Positions 32,703-48,351 are shown, counted from the first letter of the stretch. The stretch is 53,688 nt of DNA from Patescibacteria group bacterium (GCA_022574205.1 JACZSL010000004.1:1-53688); one strand, 5' to 3'. The notes: generated by a model not told the origin, from the sequence alone. Numbers and translations are program-made.

Positions 32703-32921
32703 CCCATTAGAACATTATTCTTTTAATATTTGAGCGTAATAATATATTCATCCCGATAGTAATAGGACACGGACATTAACTACCATTGCCATGAATTTAA
32801 ACTTTTGTAATTGTTCGACTTTCTCTTCATATTATATTCTAGTGTCCGTGATTACTATCGGGATTAACCTTGTTATCGTTACATATATTCATAATCCAGA
32901 CTATCTTTAATGTCTAACGGG
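32703..32921 (-). mobile_element. CCCG-hairpin element at the recR start, with a nested 111-bp element
   Basis: Minus strand: gggACCTGT-cccgttagacatta...taatgttctaatggg-ATG. Confidence 0.8.
32752..32862 (-). mobile_element. Nested CCCGATAG-type element (111 bp)
   Basis: Perfect 12-bp inverted ends cccgatagtaat/attactatcggg plus a cacggaca/tgtccgtg helix; same length and ends as 48241-48351. Confidence 0.8.
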
Positions 32922-32937
32922 ACAGGTCCCGTAAATT

Positions 32938-34338
32938 TTAGAAATCGTCAGTTACCTCTTGCGCAACAGCATTGGAATCATCAAGACTACTTTTCTCCAT
33001 ACTTTGGAAAGTTACCTTATCCTGATTAAAGTAGAGTTCTACATAGCCCGTTGGTCCATTTCGGTGTTTCTCGATAAGTATTTCAGCAATATTTGGCTTT
33101 TCACTTGCTTCGTTATACTTATCGTCACGGTGAATAAACATGACCACATCAGCATCTTGTTCTATAGATCCTGAATCCCTAAGATCAGAGAGGCGTGGTT
33201 TGCCACGTCGCTGTTCAATAGCCCGTGAAAGCTGAGAAAGTGCTAGTACCGGAATGTCGAGCTCCCTAGCAAGATTTTTAAGTGAACGTGATATTTCAGT
33301 TATTTGCTGTACTAATGATTCCTGGGCGCGACTTGATTGTGGTGACATCATTTGAAGATAATCAACAATAATAAGGTCAAGACCACGCTCACGTTTGAGA
33401 CGACGAGCAACAGTGCGCATATTCATGACGGTATTTCCCGGTTTATCGTCAATGTAGATAGGTGCTTTCGAAAGATCATTCATTGCATTCCTAATCATCT
33501 CATATTCTTCCTCCTTAATATTTTTTCCAGTACGTAATTTCCACGCGTCAACACGCGATTGCGCCGAGAGCATACGATCGACAAGTTGCTGTTCACTCAT
33601 TTCAAGTGAAAAAATACCTACAGTCGTCCCGTGGTGTATGGCGCTTTGACGCGCAATGTCGAGTGCTAGGGCAGTTTTTCCCATTGAGGGTCTTGCCGCA
33701 AGAATAATCAAATCTGATTTCTGGAAACCTGAAAGAATGTTGTCGAGACCTGAAAATCCAGTTCGGATACCACGGATACCGTCCCCGGAAGCGTTAAGTG
33801 TTTCAAATCTATCCCAGGCCTCAGTGAGGGTTTCGCTCAAGGAAACAAACTTGTGCAGAGACGGTGACTCGGTAACTTCGTAAATTTTCTTTTCAGCTCT
33901 ATCGAGCAAATCCTCGATCTCTTGGGCCTCATCATATCCTAACTCTGAAATATAATCAGCGGCAGAAATAAGGTTTCGCATCATTGCCATTTTTTGCACA
34001 ACTTCTGCGTAGTGTTTCACATTCGATGCGCTTGGAACAGCATTAACCAACTCAGCAAGAAAACTTGAACCTCCCGCTTGGTCTAGTTGTTTTTTCTGTT
34101 TTAGACGTGTTGAAAGAGAAAGCAAATCAATCGGTTCATTTTTTGAAAACAAACTTAGCATAGCGTCATAGATGATGCGATGCTTTGGGGCATAGAAAGA
34201 GTCTACAGAGATGATGTCAGTGATTTCATTCATGACATCTGGTTTAATCATAATTGACCCAAGGAGCGCCTTTTCAAGATCGATATTCTGAGGTGGAACC
34301 CTAAGTCCACTTACCTTCCTGCCTGTGTTTTTCACCAT
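32938..34338 (-). CDS. dnaB: Replicative DNA helicase
   Basis: AARPSMGKT, FSLEM, DYLQ, SQLSR, DLRDSGSIEQDAD, KHRNGP. Confidence 0.96.
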   Translation of the reverse strand: MVKNTGRKVSGLRVPPQNIDLEKALLGSIMIKPDVMNEITDIISVDSFYAPKHRIIYDAMLSLFSKNEPIDLLSLSTRLKQKKQLDQAGGSSFLAELVNAVPSASNVKHYAEVVQKMAMMRNLISAADYISELGYDEAQEIEDLLDRAEKKIYEVTESPSLHKFVSLSETLTEAWDRFETLNASGDGIRGIRTGFSGLDNILSGFQKSDLIILAARPSMGKTALALDIARQSAIHHGTTVGIFSLEMSEQQLVDRMLSAQSRVDAWKLRTGKNIKEEEYEMIRNAMNDLSKAPIYIDDKPGNTVMNMRTVARRLKRERGLDLIIVDYLQMMSPQSSRAQESLVQQITEISRSLKNLARELDIPVLALSQLSRAIEQRRGKPRLSDLRDSGSIEQDADVVMFIHRDDKYNEASEKPNIAEILIEKHRNGPTGYVELYFNQDKVTFQSMEKSSLDDSNAVAQEVTDDF

Positions 34339-34543
34339 AAAGGCATTGTATCACAGGAGCATGGATGTAAATCTGCCAACTTTTGTATATTTGTGCAAAC
34401 GCATTGGCACAATATGTGGCAAGGCTGTGGAAAACTCTATTAGCGACGTAGAGCGAGAGAAGTGCCAAGCCCTCAGGCTTGAGCATTTCTGAGCCGAGGA
34501 GCTAATAAAGGTTAACACCTCGAAGGCCTGCATCGAGGAACCT

Positions 34544-46931: not shown

Positions 46932-46935
46932 ATTT

Positions 46936-48228
46936 ATGGAATTTCACTACAAAGATTCAGCGTGTGTATCGGACGATGAGATAAAAGCCCTATCTTCAAG
47001 CCTGTCTTCCTATATTGAACATCTTCGTGAAATAGCAGAGCACGACACATATGACGAGCCTGAATGCTCAATCTTTCTTCCATACGACAATGATCTATAT
47101 GAGCAAATAATCCGAGCGAAAGAGGAAAAAATATCATCGAGGCTTAAATATGTTGTTGTGGTTGGCATAGGTGGTTCAAATCTCGGGACAAAGGCAGTCT
47201 ATGATGCTCTCAAAGGACATTTAGAAACTCTGAACCCAAACCAATTTCCTAAACTACTTTTTGCAGACACAACAGACCCAGAGTCAATATCGTACCTTTC
47301 CAACTTACTCACGACAGAGACAAAGGACTTTTCAGAGATTGTAATAAACATTATAAGCAAGAGCGGAGAGACTTTAGAAACAATAGTAAACGCGGAAGCC
47401 ATTCTCCAACATTTGAAGGCAAAATTTGGGGAGAACATCATACATCGCATTGTCATAACATGCGGGATTGATTCGCCGTTGTGGAAGAGTGCTAAGGAAC
47501 AGAACATTACAATTTTAGGCATTCCAGAGACAGTGGGTGGACGTTTTTCGGTTATGAGTGCGGTTGGGCTTTTTCCACTATCTGCTATCGGCTTTGATAT
47601 CGACAAGCTCCGTATGGGGGCTCAAGATATGCGTAAGACGTGTCTGAACAAAGAAATGAGCGAGAATCCCGCACTACTTTCGGCCACTATTCTTTTTAAG
47701 CAGGCAAAAGATGGCCGAACAATCAATACAAATTTTATTTTCAATCCAAGACTTGAATCACTCGGAAAATGGTATCGACAACTTTTAGCCGAGAGTATTG
47801 GAAAGAATGGAATTGGATTAACCCCAACAGTACTGATCGGATCTACAGATCTTCATTCAGTTGCTCAATTACATTTAGATGGACCCAAGGATAAAGTTGT
47901 TACATTTATTTCGGCGAAAACGGACTCAAATGAATCAGTTCCCAACGAACGCATTTTCCCAAACATTAGAATTGAAGTAACAGGTAAAAAGCTTAGTGAT
48001 ATTGTTAGCGCCACACTTGAATCAACAAAAGAAGTTTATAAAAAGAAAAAGATTCCGTACACAGAGGTTGTGTTGCAAAATATTTCAGAATCATCCCTTG
48101 GAGCCTTCTTACAATTCAAAATGCTTGAAATTATGTATCTTGGAAAACTCTTTGGTGTAAATGCGTTTGATCAACCGGCTGTAGAATCATACAAGACTGC
48201 AACAATTGATCGCCTAAAACAAGAATAG
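46936..48228 (+). CDS. pgi: Glucose-6-phosphate isomerase
   Basis: GIGGSNLG, SKSG.T.ET, GGRFSV, QL.AES.GK, DLHS, FDQP.VE.YK. Confidence 0.92.
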   Translation: MEFHYKDSACVSDDEIKALSSSLSSYIEHLREIAEHDTYDEPECSIFLPYDNDLYEQIIRAKEEKISSRLKYVVVVGIGGSNLGTKAVYDALKGHLETLNPNQFPKLLFADTTDPESISYLSNLLTTETKDFSEIVINIISKSGETLETIVNAEAILQHLKAKFGENIIHRIVITCGIDSPLWKSAKEQNITILGIPETVGGRFSVMSAVGLFPLSAIGFDIDKLRMGAQDMRKTCLNKEMSENPALLSATILFKQAKDGRTINTNFIFNPRLESLGKWYRQLLAESIGKNGIGLTPTVLIGSTDLHSVAQLHLDGPKDKVVTFISAKTDSNESVPNERIFPNIRIEVTGKKLSDIVSATLESTKEVYKKKKIPYTEVVLQNISESSLGAFLQFKMLEIMYLGKLFGVNAFDQPAVESYKTATIDRLKQE

Positions 48229-48240
48229 AATGATATGTAT

Positions 48241-48351
48241 CCCGATAGTTATCACGGACACTATGACAAACAACAAAACAAAGTCAAATTTTAATAGAAA
48301 TGTAACATTTAGCGTAGGGATAGTTCCTGTCCGTGCCCTATAACTATCGGG
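48241..48351 (+). mobile_element. CCCGATAG-type element (111 bp) at the ROK kinase start
   Basis: ATGTA on both sides; perfect 12-bp inverted ends cccgatagttat/ataactatcggg; second helix cacggaca/tgtccgtg. Confidence 0.85.

Follow-up and report, generated by a model that had tools for sequence, protein, structure and literature searches.

The stretch of DNA analysed here (the window, 53,688 nucleotides) comes from a Patescibacteria group bacterium (GCA_022574205.1, JACZSL010000004.1:1-53688). It is contig 15 of a 23-contig genome of 649,905 bases, with 41% G+C and 94% completeness, and it carries a population of short repeat units, nearly all of which stand directly in front of an ATG. In the window, rplU, rplI, dnaX, recR, a ROK kinase gene, a LOG-like gene, a pilin-like gene and a peptidase gene are all found behind such units. 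The left end of a unit reads CCCG[A/T]TAG and its right end CTA[A/T][C/T]GGG, and about 45 units are present genome-wide, at least 12 of them in the window; 39 units of 62-280 nt were catalogued, and a covariance model added six further copies of one family (family B, see below). The motif CCCGWTAS has 17 matches in the window, where shuffled sequence gives 3.05 ± 1.87 (0 of 100 shuffles reached the observed count), the longer word ATCCCRWTA, which includes the flanking AT, occurs 16 times against 1.56 ± 1.39, and 151 end motifs were counted genome-wide, 70 of them after AT and 24 after GT. At gathering thresholds, Rfam returns only six tRNAs from the window, and no curated RNA family matches the units. 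An initial annotation, made from the sequence alone, had proposed that the two ends of these units covary and keep G-U pairs, and that the resulting single-strand stem closes onto the AUG.

The units are divided into family A (111 bp, with subtypes A1, A2 and A3 that differ in their arms), family B (about 100 bp), family C (family B plus a nested GC-rich hairpin), family D (about 203 bp), a GTAC type of 96 nt, a short unit of 62 nt and composites of various sizes; family A has 16 matches in the genome by DNA search and family B has 20 by covariance model. The interior of family A holds a second helix of the form CACGGAC(A)/(T)GTCCGTG as well as AAAGTC(G/A)AA as a core, both of which had been predicted for the 111-bp type and are present. 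The A1 unit at 48241..48351 (plus strand, 111 bp) has the ends CCCGATAGTTAT...ATAACTATCGGG and lies flush against the ATG (48352) of the ROK-family kinase gene, and its distal flank (48235-48240) reads ATGTAT, repeating the ATGTA of that gene. An A2 unit, likewise of 111 bp, is located at 32752..32862 (minus strand) with the ends CCCGATAGTAAT...ATTACTATCGGG; it is nested in a 100-bp-type (family B) unit, 32703..32921 (minus strand), which ends at the recR ATG (32702, minus strand), has a G-T at pair 4 and carries the distal flank ACCTGT. The ATG of rplU (L21) is preceded by the 62-nt short unit (31644..31705, plus strand, G-T at pair 4), that of rplI (L9) by a family-C unit of 131 nt (38370..38500, plus strand, G-T at pair 4), and that of dnaX by a family-B tandem (50198..50404, plus strand), whose two members, 50198-50298 and 50305-50404, are separated by ACCTGT and both have a G-T at pair 4.

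First of all, the position of the units is defined by the start codon. Sites of the form TA.[CT]GGGATG have an open frame of at least 100 codons behind them in 40 of 48 cases in the genome, and the ATG after a unit can be taken as the true start because Pfam models reach the first residues of the encoded proteins (for example, L9_N over 1-47 of 47); ROK covers residues 2-280 of the protein downstream of 48241..48351, and RecR_HhH begins at residue 4 of the protein downstream of 32703..32921. The left flanks of the units repeat the start of the ORF (open reading frame), that is, ATGTA, ATGGA, ATGAG or ATGAA, followed by T. All aligned members have one orientation relative to the downstream ATG (12/12 in family A, 10/10 in family B and 4/4 in family C), and this strict orientation fits a strand-specific mechanism. 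One D-derived unit of 118 nt (23105..23222, minus strand) has ATGAAT on both flanks and stands 7 nt upstream of tRNA-Cys instead of an ORF, so that the target may be a transcription-start context or the word ATGAA rather than translation starts as such.

The units are insertions, since empty sites exist in related genomes and strains. In four of the five relatives searched, the ROK orthologue starts with ATGTAY and has no unit, and the L9 orthologue starts with ATGAAAGT, again without a unit, in all five. In two RNA libraries, which come from separate studies, there are contigs where 38299 is followed by 12 other letters and then by 38501; they represent a related strain (8 and 27 differing letters in two pieces) which lacks the 201-nt block 38300-38500 before rplI. 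A DNA contig of a related strain in another study skips 32751-32873, i.e., the A unit nested in the recR unit, and the dnaX tandem is a single copy in contigs of other samples (joints 50191>50299 and 50273>50380). The initial annotation had suggested that the stem might mark a precise excision or splicing junction, and splicing or excision of RNA is not borne out: the only skipping joints come from diverged strains, and the joint 38299>38501 must be a strain difference because of the 12 other letters and a divergence of 4-8%. The suggested precise junction does exist, but it is that of a DNA insertion, and RNA-library contigs keep the element joined to its gene (48251-49060); no clean unit-removing joint was found in the contigs of four runs, of which only the parts with RNA-library cover are informative, and splicing or RNA excision was accordingly rejected. 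We are confident that the units are miniature copies of a mobile element, relics whose parent encodes a nuclease.

The pairing of the two ends was analysed first within the genome. In family A (12 copies), 97.8% of 227 cells are paired and 5 of 19 pairs are changed on both sides, with a covariation score of 0.225 against 0.089 after shuffling; in family B (10 copies), 97.9% of 140 cells are paired and 4 of 14 pairs are changed on both sides, with a score of 0.292 against 0.105. Neither score was reached in any of 500 shuffles, and when the partner is slid by 1-3 columns, pairing drops to 27-52% (27-36% in family A). The ends of 48241-48351 and 32752-32862 both pair perfectly, and between them a T-A at pair 10 in the former is swapped to A-T in the latter, which is the compensatory swap that had been pointed out at the start. 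The covarying GTAC subfamily is also present, as a CCCGTAC-type unit of 96 nt (39783..39878, plus strand) with the ends CCCGTACGAAATTA...TAATTTCGTACTGG, ATGAGT on both flanks and a right end decayed to CTGG.

Since the copies of families A and B are kin, full-length elements of other species were taken as an independent test. The family-B covariance model has matches in only 5 of 151 genomes including the host (4 of the 150 other genomes of the order have 1-2 weak matches), that is to say, it matched almost nothing outside, and the alignment was therefore enlarged with these full-length elements instead. A search for relatives of the nuclease described below, with one genome per species, gave 82 by a single-protein query and 152 by an alignment query; 80 loci of the 152 were kept, and 68 of the 80 have inverted ends, counted as such at a score of at least 10.5 of 14. 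The 68 elements carry 32 distinct 13-nt arms, and 53 of them are perfect over 12 nt. The 56 that start with CCCG were used for position-wise analysis: positions 1-3 and 8 are invariant, position 4 is G-C in 55 of 56, and positions 5, 6, 7, 9, 10, 11 and 12 each show 2-4 types of Watson-Crick pair, so that the covariation posed as a check on the proposal holds in the larger alignment at 7 of 13 positions. Complementarity is found in 96.0% of cells, against 78.6% (maximum 82.4%) in 1000 partner shuffles, and an A-A mismatch at position 5 is conserved in one subgroup of 7 copies. With CCCG and G8 fixed, and positions 5-7 and 9-13 varying together with their partners, the two ends must pair; it is the pairing rather than the exact sequence that is kept across positions 5-13, as first claimed.

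The parent element, which occurs in many ultra-small bacteria, is a full form of 275-283 bp with 13-14-nt inverted ends, whose sole gene encodes a single-domain GIY-YIG nuclease of 86-95 aa. The ORF of the full form takes the duplicated host ATG as its start, reads across both ends and in most cases terminates at the TGA of an ATGA made with the host start; in intact copies the protein begins MNPVRD... or MNPERD... and ends ...RFLSLTG before the TGA. Among the 68 loci with inverted ends, an ATG stands directly behind in 51 and ATGAAT in front of 28, and 7 have a TAA of their own as stop, most of these being from genomes that carry the label of another phylum. In 45 full-length elements the left flank holds a start codon; the distance from this codon to CCCG is 6 nt in 34 elements, 5 nt in five, 7 nt in two, 9 nt in three and 10 nt in one. 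At the duplication, the match mostly extends over 5-6 nt (range 3-8), and a fixed duplication of 5 bp or 2 bp is ruled out by the loci L024 (ATGAAT / ATGAGA), L172 (8 nt) and L194 (7 nt). In three loci (L139, L185 and L189), the left duplicated start codon reads GTG or TTG and the host gene keeps ATG, which fits selection to keep a start codon for the nuclease.

In the same genome, a copy on contig 2 (C2:32353-32632) has D-family ends around an 87-aa GIY-YIG ORF (Pfam E 4.7e-18) with a TGA overlapping the host ATG; its frame stops after the duplicated ATG, and an intact 87-aa frame runs from an internal ATG. In the window, the 203-bp unit at 30950..31152 (plus strand), with ATGAAT on both flanks and its end at the ATG of a gene for a pilin-like protein of a type IV secretion system, is a decayed deletion derivative of family D: it can be aligned throughout with the nuclease-carrying copy on contig 2 except for a 77-column internal gap, and a GIY-YIG trace below the cut-off (E 0.0975) is left in it. 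The 39 catalogued units are short, non-coding and multicopy, as miniature inverted-repeat transposable elements (MITEs) are; their terminal inverted repeats (TIRs) are 12-14-bp terminal stems with 97.8-97.9% of cells paired, and a coding parent with the same ends exists, the derivation by deletion being demonstrated for family D only. As for family A, the A3 arms CCCGATAGTGTC.../...CTGACACTATCGGG are identical to those of the full-length element L194 of another genome; a derivation of the interior was tried by gap-cheap global alignment, which placed 80-90 of 111-113 nt, but this is unconvincing and only the arms match.

Across its relatives the nuclease is 55-78% identical and has no extra DNA-binding domain, and an AlphaFold2 model of the 95-aa form gives the bare GIY-YIG catalytic fold only (mean pLDDT 82.7). 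Among solved structures it comes closest to the UPF0213 protein BH0048 (phmmer E 0.0011) and to two structure-specific nucleases, Slx1 and HIGLE. Foldseek yielded no match at E <= 0.001 (the best being 2.5e-3; TM-scores among the matches are 0.50-0.62), and NCBIfam gave sub-threshold matches only, the group I intron endonuclease model scoring 28-30 bits against a cut-off of 56.

The closest known case is Ssn, for which the following is reported by Chenal et al. (2025, PMC11893778). Ssn is a 94-aa single-domain GIY-YIG nuclease which binds hairpin repeats as single-stranded DNA (ssDNA) only, being inactive on double-stranded DNA and RNA; it is strand-specific and cleaves a small number of nucleotides upstream, within the variable flank, and it remains active when the loop is taken away and the stem halves are on two oligonucleotides. 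Altering the palindrome with the hairpin kept abolished its activity, which counts against a purely structural recognition, and the repeat-gene-repeat layout was likened by these authors to an insertion sequence (IS). The present element shares with the Ssn system and its NTS/SRM repeats a GIY-YIG protein of about 90 aa with one domain only, cognate palindromic repeats on either side of the gene, and many ORF-less repeat copies in the genome. The differences are that NTS is a local hairpin of 28 nt whereas here the two ends of the element form a stem across 60-280 nt, and that the start-codon sites, the target duplication and an ORF which borrows the start and stop of the host gene are features of the element described here; moreover, its nearest solved relatives are UPF0213/Slx1.

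We put the probability at about 0.55 that the units are ORF-less, MITE-like copies of a tiny mobile element whose stem is recognised on ssDNA by the element's own nuclease. The right end is placed exactly 5′ of a start codon, with 4-8 nt from the ATG onward duplicated at the left. On DNA that is single-stranded or extruded, the two ends would form an intramolecular stem; the nuclease would recognise this stem and cut at its base, in the manner of Ssn nucleases acting on NTS hairpins, and host repair would then complete the move. By analogy with Ssn, the constant 6-nt flank that separates the stem from the upstream start codon may mirror the offset of the cut. The sense strand has a positive G-C skew around 32 of 39 units, and this skew, together with the orientation, fits folding on the lagging-strand template, although both are confounded with gene orientation.

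Several observations weigh against this reading. The genome's only nuclease copy inside such ends, that on contig 2, has a broken N-terminal leader. Since Ssn lost its activity when the palindrome was changed, the existence of 32 arm variants would call for co-variation of specificity or for a looser recognition. If only one DNA strand folds, wobble pairs should lean to that strand, and the 68 independent elements show 7 G-T against 5 A-C (p 0.77). Folded as DNA, B units are weak (z -1.4 sense, -0.9 antisense). Finally, families B and C carry the distal flank AC[CT]TGT in place of a duplication, a flank which the mechanism leaves unexplained and which is often preceded by a look-alike of the B right end, about 20 nt long.

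A bolder form of the same idea, which we offer tentatively and rather doubt than believe, is that the element represents a new class of transposable element, in which a GIY-YIG nuclease of about 90 aa, with no further domain, would alone excise and insert an ssDNA hairpin, on the exposed strand at start codons which double as the transcription starts of leaderless genes, borrowing promoter, start and stop from the host. A still more speculative addition is that the same stem, formed in the mRNA, might let ribosomes used to a 5′-terminal AUG reach the displaced AUG.

The main competing explanation, which we consider rather unlikely, is that the stem works as an RNA leader: the units would be transcribed as 5′ leaders, and pairing in the mRNA would fold the insert away and bring the 5′ end beside the AUG, preserving leaderless-type initiation. 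Leaderless-type initiation seems to be common in this genome, to judge from its start regions. Of 353 starts of long ORFs, 7.9% are preceded by words resembling the Shine-Dalgarno (SD) sequence, a share that is 11% for internal ATGs, so that there is no SD enrichment. A TANNNT box, resembling a -10 box, is present at a distance of 4-9 nt in front of 37.4% of the starts and of 11.9% of internal ATGs, with T enriched at -7. With no SD signal and, in many genes, a promoter box directly before the ATG, transcription would often begin at the start codon itself. In 10 of 39 units, a -10-like box is found upstream of the 6-nt distal flank at a distance of 4-9 nt (TATAAT-ggccac-ACTTGT in front of the dnaX tandem is one such case), and the early suggestion that the stem would join the transcript 5′ end to the AUG therefore holds for some loci, where the unit would form the very 5′ end. 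RNA-library contigs (48251-49060 and 48328-48957) span the interior of the A unit into the ROK gene, in favour of transcription; such contigs may contain DNA, and they show neither start nor level. Promoters inside the units were tried as an explanation and rejected: 60 promoter-like sites against 49.1 ± 6.4 in shuffled sequence are not above chance, and the in-unit matches (48287-48260, minus strand; 38464-38492, plus strand) are not conserved among copies.

Within the genome, the wobble pairs speak for the RNA explanation. The left arm CCCGTTAG faces the right arm CTAATGGG, giving a G-T on the sense strand of the gene, in the five units that the initial annotation had counted (31644-31705, 32703-32921 on the minus strand, 38370-38500, 50198-50298 and 50305-50404), and 45966-46070 also has a G-T at the pair-4 position. 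By hand count on the listing of ATG-abutting sites, pair 4 on the sense strand is G-T in 12 units, A-C in 2 and the doubly changed A-T in 1, and the terminal stems of families A, B and C together have 17 G-T on the sense strand against 6 A-C, i.e., antisense wobbles (binomial p 0.035; the family-C part counted by hand). In addition, the C unit, folded as DNA, closes its terminal stem on the sense strand only, the antisense strand failing to do so. Mutation bias as a source of the G-T excess was tried and rejected: in loop columns, C>T changes number 7 against 10 G>A, which is no excess, on small numbers. However, most of the 17 against 6 comes from pair 4 of families B and C, and because the family is nearly confined to the host genome, the in-genome bias amounts to few events; the 7 against 5 in the independent full-length elements shows no bias. 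The G-T bias is thus local and weak, and the general lean of mismatches toward sense-strand G-U that had been proposed does not extend beyond mostly one position of one family.

Other findings also speak against the RNA explanation. Folded whole as RNA, 25 of 39 units have their lower minimum free energy on the antisense strand, and 14 have it on the sense strand (mean difference +1.36 kcal/mol, Wilcoxon p 0.047). The same ends occur in the 7 of 68 versions, mostly from other phyla, that end in their own TAA, and 17 of 68 are not at an ATG; in the full form the stem encloses a translated ORF, and initiation should be impeded rather than aided by a stem that ends at -1. The RNA-stem reading may still apply to the miniature copies, above all to those of families B and C.

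A second competing explanation, which we hold to be distinctly unlikely, is that the ends are ordinary duplex TIRs, each bound by the same protein, and that the match between them is kept by the fit to that protein or by gene conversion, with no folding involved. Inverted ends, a target duplication and miniature derivatives are indeed the architecture of an IS with its MITEs; the wobbles of the independent set have no strand bias, and A units fold equally on both DNA strands (z -5.1 and -4.7; -4.6 and -4.2). Against this, a catalytic domain of about 90 aa which lacks a DNA-binding module would have to be re-tuned repeatedly to yield 32 arm variants and, at 7 positions, 2-4 pair types; several arm subfamilies coexist with a single such nuclease copy in the genome, the length of the duplication varies, unlike the fixed stagger of a transposase, and the strict orientation of the non-coding copies would be unexpected for symmetric duplex ends.

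It is very improbable that another resident enzyme moves the units, be it the single HUH transposase-like gene (Y1_Tnp, C18:283-993, E 2e-9) acting as a REP-associated tyrosine transposase (RAYT) does on repetitive extragenic palindromes (REPs), or the product of the one tyrosine recombinase gene (Phage_integrase, E 7.7e-38) acting on GGG-N6-CCC junctions, for which the 6-nt spacers between abutting units and the small GC-rich hairpins nested in A and C units might speak: the Y1 gene has its own unrelated flanking GC hairpin, the CCCG ends accompany the GIY-YIG gene in 68 loci of other genomes, and the targets lack recombinase half-sites (for which the core-site reading of GGG-N6-CCC was rejected) and have duplications of variable length. 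Around the Y1 gene (C18:230-1000), the same perfect GC-rich hairpin stands on both sides, unrelated to the CCCG ends, in a layout resembling that of REP-associated transposases. The small hairpins nested in A and C units are of the CCTGCC...GGCAGG type at 8 places and of a second type at 4.

Nor does the element appear to belong to a known IS family (DDE, serine or HUH), since DDE_Tnp_1, rve and Resolvase have 0 matches in this 94%-complete genome and the sole Y1_Tnp gene has unrelated hairpins. A GIY-YIG homing endonuclease gene does not fit the model, which shows the catalytic fold only, or the presence of units before dozens of unrelated genes. In homing endonucleases of the I-TevI type, free-standing or intron-borne, the nuclease domain is joined to a DNA-binding domain, the empty allele of one gene is the target, and inverted ends are not needed. 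The element shares with homing genes a selfish nuclease gene inserted with the host gene left functional; however, homing genes are not known to leave miniature copies or to spread to dozens of unrelated genes.

Among other mobile DNAs, bacterial MITEs with a parent IS, such as Correia/NEMIS of Neisseria, are short and non-coding, have TIRs and a target duplication, occur in dozens per genome and are co-transcribed with their neighbours. Here, too, non-coding copies share their ends with a coding parent, but this parent has no known transposase family, the target is a start codon in one orientation, the arms covary across many variants and the duplication is 4-8 nt. In IS200/IS605, REP/RAYT and integron attC, folded single strands are recognised, structure is conserved above sequence and activity is tied to the lagging-strand template. 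The present units are similar to these in their orientation-specific insertion beside a short target, whereas those systems use the chemistry of HUH (Y1) enzymes or tyrosine recombinases, with subterminal hairpins per end or a single attC, and here a GIY-YIG nuclease goes with two ends that pair with each other. IS200/IS605 and REP are also cited in the discussion of Chenal et al. (PMC11893778). Full-text literature searches found no description of TIR-bounded GIY-YIG elements on start codons.

Some further features lie beside the units and the nuclease group. A composite A-type unit (45966..46220, plus strand), with the outer arms CCCGATAGTTA.../...TAACTATCGGG, internal insertions and an inner right end at 46070, ends at the ATG (46221) of a LOG/lysine-decarboxylase-like gene; another composite (26565..26711, plus strand) has its left terminal ~10 nt gone, and its right end GGGTAACTATCGGG adjoins the ATG of a gene for a trypsin-like peptidase. 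B/C units share, ahead of their ACCTGT flank, a segment of about 30 nt, consisting of a TATAAG box and ...TTTTCTAAACGGG, which is seen at 38300-38369 in the window and also at loci on C13, C14, C3 and C6; it resembles a solo right end, and at rplI it belongs to the block absent from the related strain. Arrays of AAAGT-type words are located at 39680-39720 and 40259-40331 of the window, the latter forming an inverted pair with 81% complementarity which is closely followed by a TATACT box, itself 7 nt from the ATG at 40350, and the core AAAGTCGAA, conserved in the 111-bp units, resembles one of the array words. After tRNA-Gln (51960-52360), the window contains a truncated copy of a different GIY-YIG ORF element, behind which come two direct repeats with TATCGGGGCGAAACTGG, spaced by about 170 nt; the full copy of that element is at C20:10528-10749. 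In other genomes, four loci (L060, L064, L078 and L089) have related small GIY-YIG ORFs with the 5′ part of a tRNA gene on both sides, once as a partial duplicate and once as the full copy, which is a second insertion style for this nuclease group; the CCTGCC...GGCAGG hairpin is present in some of these loci.

If the stem is read by the element's own miniature nuclease, this would be a very compact mode of moving DNA, by which an element spreads via the start codons of essential genes (L9, L21, DnaX, RecR) in genomes thought to be almost free of transposons. It would extend ssDNA-specific GIY-YIG nucleases from the binding of repeats to transposition and might provide small programmable ssDNA cutters. 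Should the reading of the ~90-aa nuclease be true, the element would be the smallest self-contained mobile element known, with a mechanism of the 'peel-and-paste' type carried out by a non-HUH enzyme. The finding also bears on how bacteria without SD sequences tolerate 60-280 nt between promoter and start codon, and the units explain many of the oversized intergenic gaps and spurious mini-ORFs (MNPVRD... and similar) in the annotation of Patescibacteria.

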